Source: Licmophora abbreviata (lineage: Eukaryota). Taken from it: a stretch of 35,164 nucleotides of DNA. Location: NCBI GenBank assembly GCA_900291995.1, contig OLMU01004942.1, forward strand, positions 1 through 35,164, given 5' to 3'. Of this stretch, positions 491 through 16,159 are shown one piece after another. Each line of letters begins with the position of its first letter. Position 1 is the stretch's first letter. The translations under genes and the position numbers were made by a program. The notes beneath the pieces were generated by a model that worked only from the letters and a program-made list of their open reading frames with translations, had not been told where the DNA came from and did not search any database.

Positions 491-634
491 ACAAGAAACA
501 AGAGTGTGTGCTCTGGGCATTTTCAATTTTTACTTGGTACATTGAACATGGATTCTAGAGAGCCTTCGAATTTCGTTGTCATTGACAATACTAGTAGAGA
601 AAAGTAGAATGCTCTCTCTGTTCTAGAAGATACA

Positions 635-1507
635 ATGACCATCTTGCTCAAGAATGATGATGATGAGTCTTCGTCGCTGCCTGCCACGAATGATCAAATA
701 CTACAAGAAGGACCAATACTCGTATCAACAGAATCAGCGGCACTCTCACCCGCCGCCGACGTGACTGACAATGATGTAGTACCACCACCACCACAGGCAC
801 CACCTCTCTCCGCCTCCTCGCTATCCTACGAAGACTTGAGAAGAAGGCACTGGAAGGAATCCACATATGCGGTTGGACTTACGGACGTTTCATGGAAGGA
901 TGGACGACGTCGCAACACGAATGTGGCTTGTCAAATTCGTCTGTCCAATATATGCTGTGGATTGTTGAGAGCAGGTCGAGTGGGAAATATGGCAGTCTTG
1001 TTGAAATCGACAAGCACAAGACACAAGGAGGGTGCTGGTGATTTCATCATCATTACGGGCCCCTACTGGTCCATGATGCTGGGTGTCACGCTTCCAATTA
1101 TTCTCATCCTTTCGGTCCTCACGGCAATCCTCAAGTTGGTCGACATGCCTTTTTGGGTATCCATTGTCTGGGCCGTTCTTACATCCCTACTACTTCTTTC
1201 GCTCTGTATGGTCTCCTGTCGGGATCCAGGAATACTCAAGAGACATGCCGAGGCTCCTGAGAATCATGCGTCGTCCTCCTCCAACAACAACACCAATTGG
1301 AGGTGGAACGATCAGGCGCGTACCTTTCGACCACCCAAGGCCAAGTATGATCCCGAGTGTGCAGTTGTCATTGAAGAATTTGATCATACGTGTCCCTGGA
1401 CTGGTACAGCCATTGGAAAACGAAACATGCCGGCATTTCGATGCTTCCTCGTTTCCTTCTTGGTGACGCTTGTCTTTGACTTGGCATTGCTGGTCGGGCC
1501 CTTCTAG
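635..1507 (+). CDS. DHHC-family palmitoyltransferase-like protein, DHTC variant (paralog 1), intronless
   Basis: 290-aa ORF: two TM helices, DPG motif (CRDPGIL), then RPPKAKYDPECAVVIEEFDHTCPWTGTAIGKRN aligning to the DHHC-CRD consensus (..FDHHCPWxxxxIGxRN), then one final TM helix. Confidence 0.85.
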   Translation: MTILLKNDDDESSSLPATNDQILQEGPILVSTESAALSPAADVTDNDVVPPPPQAPPLSASSLSYEDLRRRHWKESTYAVGLTDVSWKDGRRRNTNVACQIRLSNICCGLLRAGRVGNMAVLLKSTSTRHKEGAGDFIIITGPYWSMMLGVTLPIILILSVLTAILKLVDMPFWVSIVWAVLTSLLLLSLCMVSCRDPGILKRHAEAPENHASSSSNNNTNWRWNDQARTFRPPKAKYDPECAVVIEEFDHTCPWTGTAIGKRNMPAFRCFLVSFLVTLVFDLALLVGPF

Positions 1508-1586
1508 CTACTCTATGATATTAACCAAGCTCTCTCTATCTAGAAAGTAAAGGAAAAGTGACAGCAGCTTTACTAGAAGAAGACCA

Positions 1587-3017
1587 TCACTTCTTGTTGT
1601 CGTTGTTGGCCGCCTCGTAGATTCCCTGGATCAGAGCCGGTACAAACAAAGAGGACGGGTGGTCCACAAGAAGGACCCTCTGTGCAAAGGCCAGAGCCGT
1701 CAGTTTCTCTTGAACTCGTTGTCGCGCTGCGTCGTCGTCGTCGTTGTACGTTCGAAGAATGTCATTCAACTGCTTTGCCGGATTGGAAAGAAAGTCTTCT
1801 TCTCGAACGAAAATGCAAAAGTCGTTCATATCCAGCAAGAGCGGTGGCGCATACTGTGGATAGTAGTCACTCACAACAACCGGAATGCACCCCACCCGGA
1901 CGGCCGTCAAGAGCGAGTGAGAATGAGGTGTGTCGCCTCGAATGACGAGACAAAACTTGGAGTGCGTCAAGTCTTGTAACCAGGATGCATGGTCCAAGTC
2001 AAAACCAATACTGAAGACGCTGCCGTTGCTACTACTAGTACTCCTAGCACTTTGTTGTTGGTGTTGTCCTTTCAGCTGGTCCACTACTTTCAGTGGCGCG
2101 TGTCGGTATTGGGTAGAATTGAACCTGGATCCGGATCGTCGCGTGCGATAAAAGAACAAGAGGGGCGACTCACGACTGAACTTTCGATAGGTCGCAGGAA
2201 GAAAGGGCACAGACGGTTCGGGGGGCAATCCAATCGACATGGTTTTGGTTGTATCTCGCGGTTGATTTGCAAAGAGTGGATGAAAGTCATGTCCGTGACA
2301 TGCGCCCCGTTCGGCAAACTCTCGACAGAGGTTCGGGTCGTAGCTTCGTACAATGGTAACATTCTTGAGTCGATCGAACCACTGTGAGAATGCTGTGTTC
2401 CGAAAGTGATCAACAATGGCCAGAATAGCATGTCGGTGGCCGTACTGATGATGATGATGATGATGAAAGTTGGGATCGGCAAGCAAGGCTGTAAAGGCCT
2501 TGTCGTAATACCGGTACGAGGATTCTTGTTGTTGATTTTGTTGTAGTAGTAGGAGCTGACCAATGGGCGTGGGGATAATGAATACGTCTGCAAGTTGCGG
2601 ATCTATCGTTCGCATGTCGTGCCGTCGCAATTCGATATGAATCGCCGTTTCGAACTCAATCTCACGCCAATAGGCCCTTTCAAGCTCAGAATTAGTAGTA
2701 GTAGTATGTTGTAATGTTGTTGTACTGGCAGTAGCATGAAGGAGTACCGACTCTTGTGTCATGGCAGTGTCGTTGTAGTAATAATAGCGAAGCCGTCGTC
2801 GATGTTTCAAAATAGGGTGCGTGATGCTGTCGTCGTCGGTGTTGTCCTGATGGACGAGTGCAGTACTATTAGTAGCAACCCCGCTACTCCAGTTCAAGCC
2901 GCCGTCTACGCGTATCATTCTTTTCACACGACCAAGAATGACAGCTTGAATGATGATACTTATGGTCACTACAAGGAGAACTCTCACACATCGGGTCCGG
3001 AACTTGCTGCATGCCAT
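1587..3017 (-). CDS. Exostosin-like glycosyltransferase (GT47), type II membrane protein
   Basis: First ATG at 3017 (MACSKF). N-terminal TM anchor (VLLVVTISIIIQAVILG), RTIDPQLADVFIIP and SKFCLVIRGDTPHSHSLLTAVRVGCIPVVVSD motifs typical of exostosin/GT47. Confidence 0.88.
   Translation of the reverse strand: MACSKFRTRCVRVLLVVTISIIIQAVILGRVKRMIRVDGGLNWSSGVATNSTALVHQDNTDDDSITHPILKHRRRLRYYYYNDTAMTQESVLLHATASTTTLQHTTTTNSELERAYWREIEFETAIHIELRRHDMRTIDPQLADVFIIPTPIGQLLLLQQNQQQESSYRYYDKAFTALLADPNFHHHHHHQYGHRHAILAIVDHFRNTAFSQWFDRLKNVTIVRSYDPNLCREFAERGACHGHDFHPLFANQPRDTTKTMSIGLPPEPSVPFLPATYRKFSRESPLLFFYRTRRSGSRFNSTQYRHAPLKVVDQLKGQHQQQSARSTSSSNGSVFSIGFDLDHASWLQDLTHSKFCLVIRGDTPHSHSLLTAVRVGCIPVVVSDYYPQYAPPLLLDMNDFCIFVREEDFLSNPAKQLNDILRTYNDDDDAARQRVQEKLTALAFAQRVLLVDHPSSLFVPALIQGIYEAANNDNKK
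2448..2465 (-). repeat. (CAT)6 microsatellite encoding His6 in GT47
   Basis: atg x6 on the + strand; NFHHHHHHQY in the protein. Confidence 0.85.
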
Positions 3018-3480
3018 CGTATTATAGAACAGAGTCACGAACACCCCTCGGCGGGCAGCGGTAACTTGAATGAAAGATACGCGGCGTTAATTTGTCATAC
3101 CGCTCCCTCCATCCTATCATCCAAAAGGGGGCAACGACGGGTGCCTTCCTCTCATTAGACCACCGATATATACCGGTATCCCCACCGACATCGATGGCCG
3201 ATGGCACACATTCCTTTCTTTGTGTTTTGGTATCCTCGCATCTCTTGCGCGTATAATAGGGAAGGGGATAAACGGCGCGCGAAAATTCATCACTTTTACT
3301 TTTCGCGTGTTGCTTTTACACCGTACCGCACCAGTTACCAGGTATCGTACTCGTAGTCGTCAAACAGCAAGACCACAACAGCACAAGAGAAAGAGGGTGT
3401 ATGTTGCAAACGCCGGAAACACATTGCCTGTGAAATTGAGCGCATGGGAGGAGAGTAAAGCACCAGCAAAACATAAAATC

Positions 3481-4555
3481 ATGTCCCAACGCCGCAATAC
3501 CAGCACTTCCGGTCGCTCCGACCATCATCCGCACCACAAGGCCGAACTGGTTCCTGTCCAAGAACCTCTGGCGCTGGACCAAGGAGTCGCCCCGTCCCTT
3601 ACTACTACAACTACGAATCATCCTTCTGCTTCCCCAACCACCACTACTACCTCACCACTTTCGATTGACGATCGCTACGAAACGGAACGACAGAATTCCA
3701 AACGCCAACATTGGAAGGATTCACCCTTTGCCGTGGGTCTAGTCGCCCCCACATGGGAAGAAGAGGGCAATGACGACAGTGAAACAATCTGCTATTGCAT
3801 CAATCCTTCCTCTTGCCAAGACGATGATATTGATTCGTCCAGTTGCATGTGCTGTTCGGGATGGGTCTGTGGCAGACTCGGGGCAGGCCGGGTGGGAAAC
3901 ATGGCAGTATTGTCGCAGAGCATCGAGTGGGTGGAACAGGTCGAGCAAGACGAAGAGACGGGAGAGGAACTTGTACACAAAGTCCAACGCCCCCGACTGC
4001 ATTACGTCGTCGGGCCCTACTGGCCCATGCTCATTTGCATCACGTACCCGTTGATTCTTGGAGTCTCCCTTTTGACTCTCTGGAAGGGTGTTCCCGGAAA
4101 ACACCCCGCGCTTGTCTTCTTTTGGGCACTCTGTACTGGTGGACTCATTTACGCCCTCTTCAAAACGAGCTTTTCTGATCCTGGTATCTTGTATCGTCAT
4201 GCGAGTCCCCCGCCACAAGATGAGAATTCGTGGCGGTGGAGCGATCAGGCGCAGTCCTATCGACCGCGGGGAGCCTTCTACGATAGTGATTGTGCCGTCG
4301 TTGTGGAAGACTTTGATCATACGTGAGTAGTGTGTGTATGAGTATGTTTGTGCATTTTTTGTTTGTGTTTTTAGCGATAGCAACACTGTGGTACTCCTCT
4401 GATCTGACGAGTTGTGCCATCGTTGTGGTATACACAGATGTCCGTGGACTGGGACTGCCATTGGCAAAGGCAACATGCCCTACTTTCAAATGTTTGTTTC
4501 GCTCGTTTTCTTTTGCTTAATTTTCGATATTTTGCTCTTGACGAAAGCTCTCTGA
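3481..4555 (+). CDS. DHHC-family palmitoyltransferase-like protein, DHTC variant (paralog 2), 2 exons
   Basis: Exons 3481-4322 and 4438-4555; intron 4323-4437 (GTGAGT..CACAG) splits the Thr codon of DHTC. Splicing restores FDHTCPWTGTAIGKGNMPYFQMFVSLVFFCLIFDILLLTKAL*. Shares HWKxSxxAVGL, AGRVGNMAVL, GPYWxM and DPGIL with paralog 1. Confidence 0.87.
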
Positions 4556-4781
4556 GGAATGATATCAGGACGATCAGGATGAGGAATGGAGAGTGATGCG
4601 AGGTGTGATTGTGTTGACGACGAATAAACCTGTGGCATACAACATACAACGAGACACAAGATTTGTGCTACCTGTATGTGGAAGCGAACAACACTGAATG
4701 GCGTCGCCACAAATTGATATTGCTCTTATTAGTTTTAAAAAAGAAGAAAGAGTACTCCTAGAGCCGCATTGACGCTTTGCT

Positions 4782-5428
4782 TTAAGAAGGCGTGTAGTGA
4801 AACCAATGATTCGCTACCCATTTCGTTTTGTTGGCGGGCAATCCTGCATGCAGTGCTTGCCAGTCCATAGTCCCATCTTTGTCGTCGCCAAGATAACTGT
4901 AAAAGGCAATGGCGTCTCCCTTTTGAATCGGTACAGTATTATTATTGTCGTTCACTTCAATCTTGCTCGCCGTTGTCACGGTGGTGGTGGACAAGAGAAG
5001 GCCGTCGCGACCGGGAACGCATCCTTTGGCTCGTTCCAATGCTTGGGATCTGTCAACAATAGGTCGCGAAATCACTTCTCTTCCTTGCTCCTCTTTCGCT
5101 TGACTTACTACCTTTGCCAATGGAAACCACGTTTCTCCTGAATCACTGAGATAGTACAGGAGAGTCAGGAGTCGATTGTTGCCGTCATGATGCAAGACAT
5201 ATTCGCCCCCCGGTTCATAGTGTACGACTTGCATGTCTTCGACGCCTTGTGGTTGTATGTGCGACGCTGACACATCGACTGGAGGGATCAGCATGGCCCA
5301 CGCTGCGTGAGCGAGACGACCGGGGAGTCCGTGAAGTTGGTCGTTGGACAACCACCCCACGAAGGAATTTCGTCGTTTCGTAGCATCGTTGGATCCCAAC
5401 GCCGTTCGGGCAGGTTTCATTCTGGTCC

Positions 5429-5459
<31 letters not shown>

Positions 5460-5930
5460 CATTTCCGAAACAATAAAATCGCATTCCTCCGTTGTTAGAA
5501 AGTTGTGCAAGACAAAGATGGGTGGCCTCAAGGATACCCGCTCAATGGTGATGTTTTGAGTGTGTGTTGGACGTTTTGTCGAAGAAGGAGTTCTAATGTT
5601 GTGTCGATATGCCAAAACGGACGCGTGTAGTGGTAGCTGCTCAAGCACGGATGGAACTCCTAGCGTCTTGAGTTCATTTTGCGTGCTGTTCCATGCGCTG
5701 GTCGGATCATCCGGTTGACGACCCCCTAAAGACGGCTGGTTCGGCATGGCATCAGTCGCTGTGCGTTCTCCGGCTGATGACAGTTCTACTGTTGCTCTAT
5801 GCTGCCATCGTCCGATGATACGAGAGATGGAGAACCCATCCGATGACGCAAGGCAAATGAGTAGAAGGAAAAGTCGATTCGGAGTTCTTGTCGAGAGTCG
5901 CATCATCGGCGAAGCGGGCGCTGCCATCAT
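4782..5930 (-). CDS. P4H: Prolyl 4-hydroxylase alpha-like 2OG-Fe(II) oxygenase with N-terminal targeting sequence
   Basis: SLRPPIFVLHNFLTTEECDFI, EDMQVVHYEPGGEYVLHHDG (HxD), RLLTLLYYLSD-GETWFP, KGDAIAFYS, LHAGLP..KWVANHW (distal His + Lys). Hydrophobic signal LFLLLICLASSDG/FSI. First ATG at 5930. Confidence 0.85.
5430..5456 (-). repeat. (CAA)9 microsatellite encoding polyQ in the P4H-like protein
   Basis: Perfect ttg x9 on the + strand. Confidence 0.95.
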
Positions 5931-6239
5931 GGTCGCGACCACAAAAGATGGATTCGCGTTTGGAATTTGGATCTTTGTGTTTCAAAGATGAAGTCGTTGT
6001 TGAAGTTGAAGTCGAGTCGAAGGATTCGTTATTTTTCCACAATTCTACGCATTGCGTCCGTAGAAAGGATACCGCTCGTGACATCAGCATGATTTAACGT
6101 CTCAAAAAGGTCATTCACAATGTCTTTTTCGATCCAGTGGCATTGTTCCTACCCCTGGTTCCAGCACCACAGAGCACCGCCTTGGACCGTTGGAGTGCAT
6201 CGACAATCATCCTCCGTCACGAACGAGACGACCGCGACC

Positions 6240-11299: not shown

Positions 11300-12474
11300 A
11301 TGACCATGACGACACGGCTGCGCTCTTCCCTCTTGCTGGGTTTTCTACTTCCCGCCGTGCTCTCTGCAAAGATCCTGGGAGAACGCGAAGAGGAAATCAA
11401 GTTCTTTCAGGGCCTGGAGGTGACGGATGACTCACCCATCTTTCAGACACAATCAATGTACCAATCGATTGAGGTCCATGTTTCCAAGTATTACGGGAAG
11501 ATTCTAGTATTGGACGATGTCATTCAGTTGACAGAACGAGACGCGGACTCTTATAATGAAATGATGGCTCATATGCCCATGATGCAACACACGCAACCGA
11601 AGAGCGTCTTGGTTATCGGTGGTGGCGATGGATATGTCCTCAGCGAAATATTGAAACATACTACTCTCCAGCACGTGGATCATGTAGACTTGGACGAAGA
11701 GGTTGTCAGGACGTGCAAGAAGTATTTTTCATGGGGTGCGGCCTGGGACGACCCTAGGGTCACATTACATGTCATGAATGGTGCCGATTTTGTTAGGAAG
11801 GCCGCCGACGCATCCTACGACGTGATTGTTCAGGATTCCTCTGATCCTTGGTTTACTACTGATGATGGGGACGCGATTCCGCTCCCATCGGAAGCATTGT
11901 ATAGCCGGGAGCACTTTGAAAACATCTATCGAATACTTAAGCCGAACGGCGTGTTCAATCTGCAGGTGAGTGGGTGTGCAGGTGGGAGACAGAATGTGAC
12001 TGCTGGCGACCCGATGATGTGTCTAAACCAAAACATGCTTGCTCGCGTTCCAGGCCGAGACTTTCAATATTCCAACTGATCTCGAGGGTATCGTCACTTG
12101 GAGAAAACAGGCGATCGACGTCGGTTTTAACAAAGCAAGCTATGGATCGATTTACATTTCAACTTACACCACCGGCCAGATTGGGTTTTTACTGTGCGAA
12201 AAGGAGCCGTCCCAAGCGGCGTCACGGACCGAAGTGAACGCGAGGTACAACGCCATGGTCGCCCGTGACCTGGGAACCTCGTATTATCATCCTCCGTTAC
12301 AGAAAAGGTGCTTTTAACGTGTCGTATGCTGCTAACAAGACTCGGATACCAAACTCATCCTATGATTGCGTTTTCTTTTTCTCTAGCTCATTCGATCTGC
12401 CGCTGTGGGTGAAGCGGCGCATATATTATGAAGACGGCATTATGGAGACGACGAGGGCCGTGGACGAACTCTGA
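11300..12474 (+). CDS. SPDS: Spermidine synthase-like aminopropyltransferase with signal peptide and C-terminal VDEL, 3 exons
   Basis: Exons 11300-11965, 12054-12307, 12387-12474. Motifs QSMYQSI, GKILVLDDVIQLTERD..YNEMMAH, VLVIGGGDG, VDLDEEV, DPRV, YDVIVQDSSDP, IYISTYTTGQIGFLLC, YYHPPLQKSSFDLP. Confidence 0.92.
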
Positions 12475-12638: not shown

Positions 12639-14162
12639 CTATCGTCGTACGGCGCGGTTAGCACCGAGAGCTGATATTGTGGCGACTGCCAAACAAACGG
12701 TCAGCTCGCCCAGAAACAGCAGACCGCGATTCAATGCGAGTCGCTTGTTGGTACGCTGTTTCCAAAAATACTTCTCTTCCTCTTGAATAAGCTCGGCAAG
12801 GACTTGGTCCTGACGAGTTGATCTCTGAGACGACTGCCATGCTATGCGTCTCTCAACTTCGTTCCGCCAACGGCTCAAGCGCCGGTAGTACGCTTGCTGG
12901 ACAGGCGATCCTTCCGGGAGATGCTTGATGGTGTGGAGAATAGCAACATCAAGGGCATGACAGAAAACGGCGCTATCAACCTCCTTCCCACAAGAAGAAC
13001 AAATATCTGTCATCTCTACGTGTACGTAGTCGAGTCCTGTGGTATCGTCTTCGTCGACAGCTTCCTCCTCGGCAATGCTGCATGTGCTGGCAATCCGGTG
13101 AGTTTCCCAGCATGAAGAACATACAGTAGAATCGGCACAGCCGCAACTCAGAGTCAAGGCACCCACTATAACATCGCTACAAATATCGCAAAGCAGTGAT
13201 CCAGGAAGCCACTCGCTTGCATCGTAAACACTTGTCTCGACTGCCGTAGACGATGCATCTACGGAAGGCGGAGCCGGAGGCAAGGCCGGCAACGCGCGAT
13301 CGACAGTGGGTTCCAGCGCGTGGAGTACCATGTCGGCCTGATTTCGGAATTGCATCCAATCCTGTTCCGTAAAACGTGCGTACCATTCGGTCGGTTCGGT
13401 GCCAGTCCGGCGCAACGGCAAAGCCAAGCGATCGGCGACATTCACAAACGAGACTCGAGTGATCTGTCGTTCATGCCTAGCAATACTAGGATGAGAGTTC
13501 ATTGTACCAAAGGAAGCGCAGGAAGAGATGGATAAATCACACTCTTCCATCGAGCTGCCCATCCAGGTGGAGGGGACAAGGGACAAGAGATAGGTATCGA
13601 TCGATTGATCCTCGGTGGAGGAGGATCCGTCCAGCGAGTACTGGTTCCGAAACACAGACTCGGTGGTCGCAATGGAATGAGTATTCTGAACTTCAAGTTG
13701 CGGATGAGGGGACATCACCCATGCATGATGAGAGTCTGGTGGTGGAGAGACCACGAGCTCGAATTCACCGGAAGGCGCCGACGAGACAATCGTTCCGCTC
13801 AAGCTCTCATCGTGGGCTGTTGATGGCTCAGTGATGCCATCCTCGTCTGCCGCATGATGGTTTCGTTGCCGGTAGATTTCAATCAGAGTTCCAGGGGGAA
13901 AGCCGACGATCGCCTCATGGGGATCAGGTACAGAGTCCATAGAAGCCTCTAAACCAGAAGAATCAAGGCCGCCGCCATGCTCGTTTCGGTGAAGTTGATT
14001 CGTGCTTTGCCGTGTGTCATCGTCGCTGTGCTGTGTCCACGACCAGCCCTGTCCTCTTTCAATCTCGTGTCCGCTGCTCATCTCTGCATCACCAGAAGTA
14101 CTATCCGATAAGGATGGAGGATTGTTTAAGCCATCCAGGAGGCTGAACGGCAGCAGCGACAT
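12639..14162 (-). CDS. Tail-anchored RING-like zinc finger protein with long disordered acidic N-terminus
   Basis: 507-aa ORF; C-x2-C-x11-C-x-C-x5-C-x2-C-x36-C-x2-C pattern, helical region, then C-terminal hydrophobic helix (GLLFLGELTVCLAVATISALGA) followed by NRAVRR. Confidence 0.7.
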   Translation of the reverse strand: MSLLPFSLLDGLNNPPSLSDSTSGDAEMSSGHEIERGQGWSWTQHSDDDTRQSTNQLHRNEHGGGLDSSGLEASMDSVPDPHEAIVGFPPGTLIEIYRQRNHHAADEDGITEPSTAHDESLSGTIVSSAPSGEFELVVSPPPDSHHAWVMSPHPQLEVQNTHSIATTESVFRNQYSLDGSSSTEDQSIDTYLLSLVPSTWMGSSMEECDLSISSCASFGTMNSHPSIARHERQITRVSFVNVADRLALPLRRTGTEPTEWYARFTEQDWMQFRNQADMVLHALEPTVDRALPALPPAPPSVDASSTAVETSVYDASEWLPGSLLCDICSDVIVGALTLSCGCADSTVCSSCWETHRIASTCSIAEEEAVDEDDTTGLDYVHVEMTDICSSCGKEVDSAVFCHALDVAILHTIKHLPEGSPVQQAYYRRLSRWRNEVERRIAWQSSQRSTRQDQVLAELIQEEEKYFWKQRTNKRLALNRGLLFLGELTVCLAVATISALGANRAVRR

Positions 14163-14416
14163 GATGTCGAAAGTGGATCAATAGTCTGGACCTTGCCTCT
14201 ATTGGTTCAATTTTGAGGTCGAAATTCTTACACACACATCATTCATCAACATCATTCAGACTTCGTGCTCTTTGCGAGCTCGCAATGTATATTCAATATC
14301 AGCTCGTCCTTCACGCAAGATTGCAGGCCATTCGTCGTCTACGAGTGCTAGTAGTATCATTAGACCTGGTAGGTATCACATATAAGACTCAACCCAAAGT
14401 AAGCAATACGACTAGA

Positions 14417-15397
14417 CTATGAACTACCTGCAGCCTTTGCGTCCTCTGGCTGACTCTTCGCCTTCTTCTTTTTCTTCTTTCGCTTCTTGATTCCGCGTTC
14501 GTACGCCGTAATGGACAAGTCGGCAATGCGAGACTTTTCTTCGTCTTGTTCTTTTCGGGCGCGCTCTGCCGCTGTCAACCCTGCATCTTCCGACTTGATA
14601 GCGACCCCTGCTACATGGGGAGTCAGAACTAGATCAACCTCGTCGAAGCCGACTTCAAACATTGGGAACGCTTCCTCGCCGTTTTCCTTGCTGGTATCAT
14701 TGTCATCAGAGAACCCTTGTTCATCACAGCCATCCGCCGCGCTCGCCAGCCCCATGACGTAGTCCAGATACGACTCTCCATTCAGCGAGCTTTGCTCGAC
14801 AAACAGGAGACGACCCCCGGGCTTCAACACCCGCGCAGCCTCCCGAATACTCTTCTTCCACTCGAGCCCATTCTCCAGCATGCGAGCTGCTGCTTGCAGA
14901 CTAATAACCACATCGACACTATCGTCGGCGGTCTCCTTGAGATCATCCGCTCGCTGATCAAGAAAGCTGACTTTAGCAGCTTTGCGACGCTCCTGTTGTT
15001 GTTTGAGCTGTCGCTTCACTGCAACCTTGACTTGTCCGTCGACTTCAGCAGACGAAGTGACCAGCTCTCGCACGGTCCTAGGAATGAAAGTGATTGCACG
15101 GCCGTCTTCGCAGCCCAACTGTAAGCAGACGTCCGCGGAACGAGGGGTCTGGTTCGTACAAAGAGCAGCTGATACCCATTCGGTTCGAAGATACGTGACC
15201 AAGTCTAAACCCATGTGAAGTCGTGTCTTGGGCGTATTGTTGGTAGTGCGTGGTTGTGCGGAAAGCAAGTTTGGTGGGCACCATGCAGAGGATGTCGCCG
15301 TCCGAGGTACAAACGCAACACATGATTTCCACGCAAACCCAGCTATCAGCACAAGCCAGCCCGTTGCGAGCGACTGTGCGGACTGTGAAAACTTCAT
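14417..15397 (-). CDS. Plastid-targeted class I SAM-dependent methyltransferase-like protein
   Basis: ATG 15397; signal peptide ending CVA/FVP (ASAFAP-type) + Ser/Thr transit peptide; ADDSVDVVIS..IREAARVLKPGGRLLFVE (Methyltransf_11-like motifs II/III); degenerate motif I LQLGCEDG; Lys-rich C-tail. Confidence 0.78.
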   Translation of the reverse strand: MKFSQSAQSLATGWLVLIAGFAWKSCVAFVPRTATSSAWCPPNLLSAQPRTTNNTPKTRLHMGLDLVTYLRTEWVSAALCTNQTPRSADVCLQLGCEDGRAITFIPRTVRELVTSSAEVDGQVKVAVKRQLKQQQERRKAAKVSFLDQRADDLKETADDSVDVVISLQAAARMLENGLEWKKSIREAARVLKPGGRLLFVEQSSLNGESYLDYVMGLASAADGCDEQGFSDDNDTSKENGEEAFPMFEVGFDEVDLVLTPHVAGVAIKSEDAGLTAAERARKEQDEEKSRIADLSITAYERGIKKRKKKKKKAKSQPEDAKAAGSS

Positions 15398-16159
15398 GGT
15401 GGTACCGAGAACTGGGAATGTTGAAGTGAAACAAGCCTTCTCTGCTGCCCACAAGCTGCGATAGATTGAAGTGTTTGGCTGTTTTTTTTGTTTTTGGTGT
15501 GGCTATGTGCGCGTCCAAGTCATCGCGCAGACAGATGACATCGTTCTCCGTTTGGATCGGGCAGCTGGGAAGAGTTTGTTCCGCCAGACAGACCTTGAGG
15601 TTGAACTTATTCTCGCGATCTTTCTCTCCGCGTGGACGCTGGTACTGATCCTACGTAGCAAGCAGTGGCGTCATTCCATCCTCAAAAATCAAGCGGCCGC
15701 ACTTTGTGAAGGTGTGTTTGTGCGGTGACAATGGTGCTTTTCCGGGACGGTCGTCGCAGCGGTGTTCAGGGAATCGCCTCCAGGGACTTGATGATGGTCT
15801 AGAGGATACATGACGACAGATTGAGACGCGAAATTGTGAAAGAAGAATGGAGGAGGGCGAGCTTGAGGGACATCTCTTCTCCCCTTGCTCGTTTTGGCGG
15901 CGCTGACTGAACCCATTCTTCGGGAAGTTCTTGGTCTGGAAATGATCGGGGGTGCTTAGCAGTCGGCTCCTGGCTATGGGGGGTCGTCGGTCGAGTCTCT
16001 GTCGACGATTTCGTTGCCATGACCTCGCCTCTCCGAGATTCCACGGCCTCGCGCGTACGAGCTCGTACGTTTTCGTACACTGTGCAGAACCTCCGACTCA
16101 CTCTCCTCTTTCTTTGGTTCTTTTCCCCGCAGAAATCACTGCACACTGAATTTTCCAGA

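Follow-up and report, generated by a model that had tools for sequence, protein, structure and literature searches.

The window analysed here, a 35,164-nucleotide stretch of DNA from Licmophora abbreviata (contig OLMU01004942.1 of assembly GCA_900291995.1), carries a gene of three exons whose 1008 nt of spliced sequence encode a protein of 335 aa that ends in VDEL and then the stop. All features described below lie on the plus strand. Exon 1 (11300..11965) encodes residues 1-222 and contains the predicted signal peptide and the N-terminal beta domain, together with the gate loop and the greater part of the Rossmann core; exon 2 (12054..12307) starts with residue 223 and ends two bases into codon 307; and exon 3 (12387..12474) supplies the C-terminal helix motif SFDLPLW, a tail of predicted low order, the VDEL tetrapeptide (12460-12471) and the stop codon. 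Both introns have GT..AG borders, the first of 88 nt (11966..12053) and the second of 79 nt (12308..12386), and retention of the second would give an in-frame stop. Upstream of the ATG an in-frame stop is reached at 30 codons, with no intervening ATG.

As read from the sequence, this gene model is established by homology. Transcript-derived homologues begin in the same way as the window protein and align ungapped over both junctions, NLQ/AETF and LQK-S-SFDLPLW, and the spliced VDEL terminus that had been proposed for the gene is thus confirmed by a model with regular introns and matching junctions. Many genomic relatives called as open reading frames end right after N[LIF]Q, so the position of intron 1 is probably a common one. 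A single sequencing run matched the window (X1, share 0.05), and it carries no record of being RNA; its one contig, 166 nt long and lying on 12196-12329, passes unspliced through the border of exon 2 and intron 2 and has adapter-like loose ends, for which reasons it looks like DNA. The flanking open reading frames are unrelated eukaryotic genes, with no SAM decarboxylase adjoining, and a functional tie to these neighbours was accordingly dropped.

The protein is built as a spermidine synthase. Pfam recognises Spermine_synt_N (PF17284) at residues 37-79 (9.6e-10, 38.7 bits, cut-off 22.1) and Spermine_synth (PF01564) at residues 83-222 (8.5e-40, 136.7 bits, cut-off 22.9), both within exon 1, and the scan of the window protein returned no further domain and no SAM decarboxylase domain (PF02675). 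The AlphaFold model of exon 1 (pLDDT 92.1) is confident through the active-site region, and that of P0005, a full-length family proxy and not the window protein itself, has a pLDDT of 92.2 and a pTM of 0.89 and superposes on the human and plant enzymes at TM 0.83-0.91. In both models an N-terminal beta domain of six strands (24-30, 35-41, 48-51, 56-62, 66-71 and 74-78 in exon 1) precedes a Rossmann-type core. The best solved relatives are the spermidine synthases of Arabidopsis, Plasmodium and human, and human SRM (PDB 2O06) and Arabidopsis SPDS1/2 (PDB 1XJ5, 6O64) share both Pfam domains and the fold with it. These canonical enzymes, at about 40-47% identity, also possess GGGDG, DSSDP, the catalytic Tyr and two Asp, but they have neither a signal peptide nor an xDEL end, their gate loop is 10 residues shorter and they fall in a separate clade.

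The catalytic motifs are intact, as the original prediction had stated. GGGDG (11618..11632) occupies residues 107-111, is invariant in the alignments and is followed by a family-specific Tyr112, and DSSDP occupies residues 179-183. Tyr85, Asp110, Asp179 and Asp182 are invariant in the family and canonical rows of alignments A1 and A2, the first three being 99-100% conserved across the family, where they correspond to the active sites Tyr79, Asp104 and Asp173 of spermidine synthase in human numbering (PMC10968388). Also retained are Asp182 and Tyr260, the residues by which canonical enzymes grip the distal amine of putrescine, which leaves ordinary spermidine synthesis a plausible activity.

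What sets the protein apart begins at its N-terminus. Residues 1-23 (11300..11368) resemble a signal peptide, with two Arg, a 15-residue uncharged core and then VLS/A or LSA/K, both in keeping with the -3/-1 rule, so that cleavage is likely after Ser22 or Ala23. This segment is the one 19-residue window of the whole protein with a mean Kyte-Doolittle value of at least 1.6, and in the exon 1 model pLDDT is 56-59 across residues 1-20, with the first strand starting at residue 24. The assignment, a putative one made from hydrophobicity, the -3/-1 rule and model confidence, agrees with the signal peptide originally proposed and gains from its recurrence in relatives: hydrophobic N-termini occur in 82 of 123 family rows vs 5 of 49 canonical rows, and among 139 rows 83 have a signal-peptide-like start and 23 an anchor-like or late hydrophobic stretch. 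The idea that this peptide takes the place of the first strands of the N-terminal domain was wrong, since the fold that begins at residue 24 has all six. The window protein contains no N-x-S/T sequon, which speaks against a lumenal enzyme.

A signal peptide in a diatom might also form the leading part of a two-part presequence for the plastid or periplastid space, which would place the enzyme in or near the plastid. Diatom plastid import does begin with an ER signal peptide, and in the bipartite pre-sequence a transit peptide comes after the cleavage site, whose +1 residue is aromatic or Leu. Cutting behind Gly14, which formally satisfies the -3/-1 rule, would indeed give Phe at +1; it would, however, shorten the hydrophobic core to some 5 residues. 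At the sites that we favour, +1 is Ala or Lys. Because the fold begins at residue 24 there is no space for a transit peptide, which upholds the earlier view that plastid Phe and transit peptide are both absent, and the C-terminal VDEL speaks for ER retrieval. We therefore consider a plastid destination very improbable.

The second distinguishing feature is the gate loop, which together with DSSDP spans residues 179-201 (11834..11902) and contains a 10-residue insertion. HMMER alignment makes the loop 10 residues longer than those of Arabidopsis SPDS1/2, in agreement with the lengthening first noticed in the sequence, and the spacing from DSSDP to L-F/Y is 16 residues in the window protein and its family vs 6-8 in 64 canonical rows. 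All 121 aligned family rows carry the insertion, as do 272 of the 447 proteins retrieved, and it is predicted (AlphaFold models of exon 1 and P0005) to form a beta hairpin with strands at 184-186 and 192-194. Acceptor choice is governed by the gate loop (PMC6356823). Further residues follow the same division: Tyr112 after GGGDG is found in 97% of the family vs Gly in 14 of 15 canonical rows, and the family has F-Y vs canonical WPG, Asn86, directly after the catalytic Tyr, vs Gln/His, Gln178 vs Val/Thr and His205 vs Phe.

The gene had been treated at the outset as a single odd one, and this does not hold: judged by its insertion and signature residues, it belongs to a family with many members in diatoms. 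The long-gate-loop family forms a clade apart from the 15 canonical rows with an SH-aLRT of 100. Its taxonomic range, as read from 16 named rows, takes in pennate and centric diatoms, to which 16/16 belong, Cyclotella cryptica, Seminavis robusta and Nitzschia among them; the expected restriction to silicifying lineages is borne out to that extent. PF02675 is absent from the long-gate rows of at least 390 aa that were examined, and no SAM-decarboxylase or SET fusion with a long gate loop occurs among 90 longer matches, both consistent with the stand-alone aminopropyltransferase-type protein that had been predicted. P0230 was left out of the family, as its longer loop arises from another insertion and the rest of its sequence is canonical.

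It is reasonable to ask whether a protein with so many substitutions is still an enzyme. The window copy departs from the strong family consensus at Lys34, Ser102, Asn160, Thr261 and Asp294. The Asn160 codon (11777..11779) lies at a position, which we take to be the Asp of the xDG motif that binds adenine, where 96% of the family has Asp; Asp is invariant there in A1 and present in all other A2 rows checked. Such departures, one of them at a near-invariant residue, together with the family's Asn for Gln/His after the catalytic Tyr, its Tyr for Gly after GGGDG and the hypothetical nature of dcSAM in the lumen, would suit a lumenal pseudoenzyme with a polyamine-binding or chaperone-like role, or an enzyme that has changed its use of cofactor; this would apply to the window copy at least. 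Against this, Tyr85, Asp110, Asp179 and Asp182 are all invariant, the model is confident over the active-site region, and Asn replaces Asp160 in 5 further, scattered rows among 156 family rows, a recurrence that suggests the change is tolerated. Loss or alteration of catalysis thus strikes us as improbable, and we continue to regard the protein as a probable aminopropyltransferase.

The C-terminus tells a more divided story. Ends of the form [DE]EL close 23 of 170 readable family C-termini vs 0 of 64 canonical ones, and 137 of the 170 readable family tails have no xDEL end of any kind. On the tree the [DE]EL ends are clustered: they take 6 changes, whereas the shuffles averaged 9.6, and 0 of 500 shuffles came down to 6. 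In the window's own sub-clade (SH-aLRT 84) 5 of 6 rows end in [DE]EL and one row ends otherwise, and in a second sub-clade 7 of 7 do. The tail of the P0005 proxy is of low predicted order (pLDDT 60 and 49). DDEL holds proteins in the ER of Phaeodactylum (PMC3503769). VDEL itself is a putative retrieval signal: position -4 is reported to influence receptor affinity in other organisms (PMC8248988). Conservation in orthologues, as called for at the outset, is seen both for the hydrophobic N-terminus, which is common in the family, and for the [DE]EL end, which is kept clade by clade. For the family at large, secretory-pathway is a more fitting label than ER-resident.

How does this family relate to aminopropyltransferases already described in diatoms? 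For Phaeodactylum tricornutum, PMC10968388 lists just two stand-alone genes of the window protein's Pfam family; their products, PtSDS1 and PtSDS2, convert putrescine to spermidine in vitro and were reported as cytoplasmic by C-terminal EGFP at 400x magnification. PtSDS2 was considered as the Phaeodactylum member of the long-gate-loop family and ruled out by its SEQRES record (PMC10968388 supplement), a sequence of 275 aa that starts with the WPG motif, carries Phe instead of the catalytic Tyr, has a gate loop of the short canonical kind and lacks both signal peptide and xDEL end. PtSDS1, too, appears to be canonical and short-gate, as judged by the description in the paper (PMC10968388). Since PtSDS2 is of the short-gate, cytoplasmic type, that work lies outside the long-gate-loop family. 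The diatom fusions of SAM decarboxylase and aminopropyltransferase, with or without a SET methyltransferase, have also been proposed for long-chain polyamine synthesis (Michael 2011, FEBS Lett 585:2627, as cited in later papers); they are multi-domain and of bacterial type, whereas the family of the window protein is stand-alone with a secretory signal. Identity to the window protein reaches at most 40% in rows with PF02675, and the gate loop is short in P0290, a SET-fused row. Diatom aminopropyltransferases are described as still without functional study (PMC12803844), and our literature search, which reached Michael 2011 through citing papers, found no account of a signal-peptide- or xDEL-bearing diatom aminopropyltransferase, nor of this family.

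These comparisons bear on the most conservative explanation, in which the gene encodes an ordinary cytosolic spermidine synthase and chance, or a faulty gene model, accounts for its hydrophobic N-terminus and its VDEL. The model does come from homology, the lone X1 contig is unspliced and DNA-like, and source databases annotate the relatives simply as spermidine synthase. Nonetheless, the transcript-derived homologues share the start and span both junctions without gaps, the N-terminal trait and the [DE]EL ends separate family from canonical rows in the proportions given above, and the family is a clade distinct from canonical enzymes, among which the cytoplasmic PtSDS2 and PtSDS1 are placed as short-gate by sequence and by description, respectively. 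We regard this explanation as largely refuted, with scarcely any probability left to it.

Overall, we lean toward the view that the product of the window gene, as part of a diatom-specific family, is a dcSAM-type aminopropyltransferase imported into the ER, retrieved by its VDEL end and active on an amine acceptor in the lumen. A cleavable N-terminal signal peptide would direct entry into the ER, where the protein would fold from residue 24 as a complete spermidine-synthase-like enzyme; the exposed C-terminal VDEL of the window copy would return it from the Golgi to the ER; and in the ER lumen it would move aminopropyl groups from dcSAM to the acceptor. Translocation, ER residence, lumenal catalysis, dcSAM import and a biosilica role are each steps that we infer. 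As acceptors, the likeliest candidates in our view are propyleneimine chains under extension, or amines borne on the lysines of secreted proteins that form silica, in preference to bulk putrescine. Silaffins enter the ER and carry aminopropylated lysines for which the responsible enzymes are unknown (PMC4557024). The only localised diatom SAM decarboxylase was reported as cytoplasmic (PMC10968388), so dcSAM in the lumen would need a transporter.

A secretory-pathway aminopropyltransferase need not serve silica at all. It might instead produce small polyamines, spermidine included, inside the endomembrane system, to be exported, stored in the vacuole or used for some other lumenal need, with the xDEL end of the window copy simply setting the site of polyamine synthesis. 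The putrescine-type pocket and the full set of conserved catalytic residues would accord with such a role, as would the majority of the family, which without xDEL would move onward, and diatoms are reported to secrete polyamines (PMC6356823). A general need of this kind, however, would leave unexplained why the family is confined to diatoms among its 16 named rows, and the loop that governs acceptor choice (PMC6356823) is remodelled in every member. We therefore judge a role apart from silica unlikely, although spermidine as the sole product would still represent an unusual relocation of polyamine synthesis.

For the lumenal aminopropyltransferase that we favour, a broader reading is possible, if more doubtful than the assignment of the window protein itself: the long-gate-loop family as a whole may be the lumenal aminopropylating machinery of diatom biosilica, with its members distributed over the stages of the secretory pathway. 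Long-chain polyamines shape the silica of diatoms, as do silaffins with aminopropyl-bearing lysines (PMC4557024). Copies with xDEL would work in the ER, signal-anchor copies in the Golgi, and others onward toward the silica deposition vesicle, adding propylamine units to silaffin lysines or extending long-chain polyamines within the lumen, while the entrance for the acceptor would be remodelled by the conserved hairpin so as to admit polymeric or peptide-borne amines. If true, this tentative scheme predicts a supply of dcSAM, or of SAM plus decarboxylase, to the endomembrane lumen of diatoms; the literature consulted gave no description of lumenal dcSAM supply in any organism. The existing candidates for diatom aminopropyl chemistry are multi-domain fusions, and a stand-alone, diatom-restricted family with secretory signals, a remodelled gate and ER-retrieval sub-clades offers concrete, testable candidates for the aminopropylation of silaffins and polyamines.

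There is a precedent for such a relocation in the silaffin kinase tpSTK1 of Thalassiosira pseudonana, an enzyme of a normally cytosolic type that a signal peptide brings into the secretory pathway, where it modifies silica-forming proteins (PMC4557024). As described there, tpSTK1 is ER/Golgi-associated; it is experimentally supported, whereas the window gene is known from sequence, and the two proteins differ in fold and in chemistry.

An ESM Atlas search returned generic spermidine-synthase clusters only. The metagenome locus scan gave a single relative, L001, an intron-free sequence of 385 aa without an xDEL end that has a signal-peptide-like start and a gate-loop insertion of 6 residues.

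Overall, the best reading of the window protein, and one toward which we lean modestly, is a secretory, probably ER-retrieved, stand-alone aminopropyltransferase. The original prediction had placed its gene at 11300-12474, and these coordinates are the exact coding span. Three forward-strand exons (11300-11965, 12054-12307 and 12387-12474), separated by introns of 88 and 79 nt that are both bounded by GT and AG, keep one reading frame through the expected VDEL to a stop, and the spliced gene is 1008 nt, comprising 335 codons and then the stop. On the 5' side, an in-frame stop lies 30 codons before the chosen ATG, with no ATG between them. The predicted exon/intron structure is based on homology. 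Both junctions are crossed gap-free by transcript-derived relatives (MMETSP rows P0004, P0006, P0064, P0067 and P0088), and many relatives predicted from genomic contigs end directly after the N-[LIF]-Q that closes exon 1, as expected if the position of the first intron is shared with the window gene; the model of another relative, P0098, has an additional stretch precisely at the second junction. Sequencing-run coverage of the gene consists of a single unspliced 166-nt contig from the only run listed (12196-12329) with adapter-like ends, which looks like DNA.

The fold is that of a spermidine synthase. Exon 1 scores far over the cut-offs of both spermidine-synthase Pfam domains; among solved structures it is closest to Arabidopsis SPDS2 and SPDS1 (E ~1e-39), with the Plasmodium and human spermidine synthases next. 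AlphaFold models the window's own exon 1 confidently (pLDDT 92.1), and P0005, a full-length relative from the same sub-clade (335 aa, HDEL end) that stands in for the spliced window protein, is modelled with pLDDT 92.2 and pTM 0.89; superposed on spermidine synthases from human, plant and trypanosome, it reaches TM scores of 0.83-0.91 (normalised to the target). The longer gate loop noted in the original prediction is confirmed, and it is a family-wide trait rather than a peculiarity of this gene: the 10-residue insertion is present in 121/121 aligned rows (the window protein and its 120 best matches) and in 272 of all 447 proteins fetched, whereas the 64 canonical relatives have a short loop. 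Its conserved anchors are Trp or Phe following DSSDP, one Gly, Leu-Pro-Ser and Leu-Tyr, and in both models (exon 1 and P0005) it is predicted to form a beta hairpin (184-186 and 192-194). P0230, whose longer loop is unrelated, was excluded from the family. L001, a metagenome relative (135-1292, +) that is intron-free, with a signal-peptide-like start and no xDEL, has a 6-residue insertion, indicating that insertion length varies at the family's edge.

Other signature residues, derived by comparison with 15 canonical rows, are Phe-Tyr at 35-36 (canonical Pro-Gly), Ala82 (Glu), Asn86 (His/Gln), Tyr112 (Gly), Gln178 (Val/Thr) and His205 (Phe). In a quick maximum-likelihood tree of 87 rows, made up of 72 family members with readable C-termini and 15 hand-picked full-length canonical proteins from the 64, with the 84 family rows whose tails are unreadable left out, the family splits from the canonical rows with an SH-aLRT of 100, with long outgroup branches flagged by the tool. 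A bit-score gap among 1.84 billion cluster representatives likewise separates the family (>~185 bits) from canonical proteins (~120-157 bits), the latter being 40-47% identical to the window protein.

The catalytic residues are in place. The Asp of GGGDG, which we take to give such enzymes their preference for decarboxylated SAM (dcSAM), is retained, and the family also keeps Asp182 and Tyr260 (the latter at 92%), which in canonical enzymes hold putrescine's far amine. Tyr85, Asp110, Asp179 and Asp182 are invariant in family and canonical rows alike; the first three are the counterparts of human Tyr79, Asp104 and Asp173, named as active sites in the available text of PMC10968388. The mature window protein would have only two Cys, residues 139 and 270, and each lies at a position conserved in the family (93% and 58%).

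The window's own protein is absent from the databases searched, where its closest match is 75% identical. Restriction of the family to diatoms is supported, if not proven, by the 16 family rows that carry an organism name, 16/16 of which are diatoms: Nitzschia inconspicua, Nitzschia sp. Nitz4, an MMETSP Nitzschia, Seminavis robusta, Mayamaea pseudoterrestris, Cylindrotheca fusiformis, JGI 'Psemu1', Odontella, MMETSP 'Amphi...', Cyclotella cryptica, Cyclotella atomus, Thalassiosira sp., Thalassiosira exigua, Discostella pseudostelligera, MMETSP 'Thal...' and Extubocellulus. Named non-diatoms (plants, fungi, Hondaea, Hexamita and bacteria) occur only in canonical-type rows at <=~46% identity, and the first few whose gate loops were checked are all short-gate. 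No Phaeodactylum row is among the 16 named members, and the lightly silicified Phaeodactylum tricornutum may lack the family; the available text of PMC10968388 gives just two stand-alone spermidine-synthase-like genes for this species.

The enzyme also appears to stand alone, as proposed: the long-gate rows examined, 24 new ones (P0266-P0289, from 90 matches of 390-2000 residues) and five earlier ones, carry only the two spermidine-synthase domains, and the longer proteins owe their extra length to an extended N-terminus that often includes a hydrophobic segment. SAM-decarboxylase fusions occur only in rows of <=40% identity, and P0290, which is fused to a SET domain, is short-gate; for P0301-P0350, domain content was taken from Pfam columns alone. 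The characterised diatom enzymes, PtSDS1 and PtSDS2, are of the canonical kind. Both make spermidine and are reported as cytoplasmic, and PtSDS1 is 58% identical to human spermidine synthase (PMC10968388, available text). The PtSDS2 SEQRES record (PMC10968388 supplement) has 275 residues, starts at the WPG motif and has a short gate; its catalytic Tyr is replaced by Phe, and it lacks an xDEL end.

At the N-terminus, the proposed classical-looking signal peptide is supported at residues 1-23 by hydrophobicity, the -3/-1 rule and model pLDDT. In this segment two Arg precede an uncharged core of 15 residues, and small residues occupy -3/-1, with predicted cleavage after Ser22 or Ala23; it contains the protein's only strongly hydrophobic 19-mer, and its pLDDT in the exon 1 model is 56-59. 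The original observation holds apart from one structural detail, and its interpretation is partly supported. The detail is the suggestion of a signal peptide taking the place of the first N-domain strands, which is unsupported because all six modelled strands (24-30, 35-41, 48-51, 56-62, 66-71 and 74-78) come after it. The Pfam N-domain match begins only at profile position 11.

Secretory-type N-termini are family-wide. Of the full-length family rows, 82/123 have a strongly hydrophobic 8-mer among residues 1-30, vs 5/49 canonical ones. Measured from the aligned fold start, the 139 usable family rows comprise 83 signal-peptide-like, 12 signal-anchor-like, 11 with a later hydrophobic stretch, 22 with none, eight not starting with Met and three too short; several of the 22 fall just below threshold or begin at an internal Met. 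One sub-clade (P0032, P0035, P0039, P0046, P0065, P0069 and P0093) has a basic stretch and then a ~18-residue hydrophobic segment, a pattern that resembles the type II signal anchor of Golgi enzymes more than a signal peptide that is cleaved off.

As for conservation of the two signals in relatives, hydrophobic N-termini are common, and ER-retrieval-type ends are concentrated in sub-clades, with [DE]EL in 23/170 family tails (window included, and by a wider tail pattern than an earlier count of 16/72), near variants in 10/170 and other endings in 137/170, against 0/64 in canonical rows. The window's sub-clade of six carries ADEL, HDEL, REEL, GEEL, VDEL and one other ending, although with an SH-aLRT of only 84, while a second sub-clade has [DE]EL in 7/7. 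On the tree, the xDEL label requires 6 changes vs a shuffled mean of 9.6, a value as low in 0/500 shuffles, and is therefore clustered. The last 15 residues of P0005 have low predicted order (pLDDT 60 and 49), which suggests that the last four would be exposed. In Phaeodactylum, an antibody with C-terminal DDEL is kept in the cell and is secreted after removal of the signal (PMC3503769, available text), which indicates that diatoms read xDEL ends with unusual -4 residues. A clade that includes Nitzschia inconspicua (P0028, P0041, P0044, P0050-P0052, P0080, P0085, P0088, P0091 and P0101) lacks xDEL; its tail is instead conserved and acidic and contains one Cys (…EDTSDLLC…), a residue that predominates (69%) at this position across the family.

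In the pathway we envisage, the window protein would be translocated, its signal peptide would be cut near residue 23, VDEL would cycle it back to the ER, and it would transfer aminopropyl groups from dcSAM in the lumen. Against this we count that five residues of the window copy differ from a strong consensus, among them Asn160 (otherwise a near-invariant Asp), that it has no N-glycosylation sequon, and that the only localised diatom SAM decarboxylase is reported as cytoplasmic (PMC10968388, available text), so that a dcSAM carrier would be required. As to the acceptor, the gate-keeping loop, which governs substrate choice (PMC6356823, section 3.3), is altered in every family member. The conserved Asp182 and Tyr260 would weigh on the other side.

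A link between the family and silica is attractive, if still tentative and less likely than not. Silaffins carry ER signal peptides, and their lysines are alkylated by aminopropyl units that are methylated; KXXK motifs are proposed as recognition sites of the modifying enzymes, and a silaffin kinase with a signal peptide is ER- and Golgi-associated (PMC4557024, available text); in Thalassiosira pseudonana, a SAM synthetase is among the proteins of the valve SDV set, whose authors link it to propylamine units (PMC9894196, available text). It is these observations that make a biosilica role attractive. The long-chain-polyamine enzymes proposed in the literature, as available, join a SAM decarboxylase to an aminopropyltransferase, either alone or together with a SET domain. 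For Nitzschia inconspicua, a 2025 JBC paper counts eight stand-alone homologues alongside 32 fusion proteins and calls them an open area (PMC12803844, available text). Our full-text search found no description of a diatom aminopropyltransferase with a signal peptide or an xDEL end; Michael 2011, Sheppard 2010 and Roemer 2008 lay beyond that search, and an earlier mention is possible. The main value of the family is as a diatom-specific set of candidates for the enzymes that aminopropylate silaffins or build long-chain polyamines.

Among the neighbouring frames, one of 512 aa (12639-14177, -) converges on the gene's 3' end; it has no Pfam match at E<=1e-4, and by eye contains a RING-like stretch rich in Cys and has a hydrophobic C-terminus. 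Two genes downstream, an ORF at 14417-15502 (-) encodes a methyltransferase domain of the class I SAM-dependent type (Methyltransf_11, E 4.5e-10); although N-methylation is a feature of long-chain polyamines, such proximity means little in a eukaryote. Upstream, within 608-5981, lie three ORFs with endomembrane-type domains (a DHHC palmitoyltransferase, a GT47 exostosin and a 2OG-Fe(II) oxygenase), probably by coincidence.
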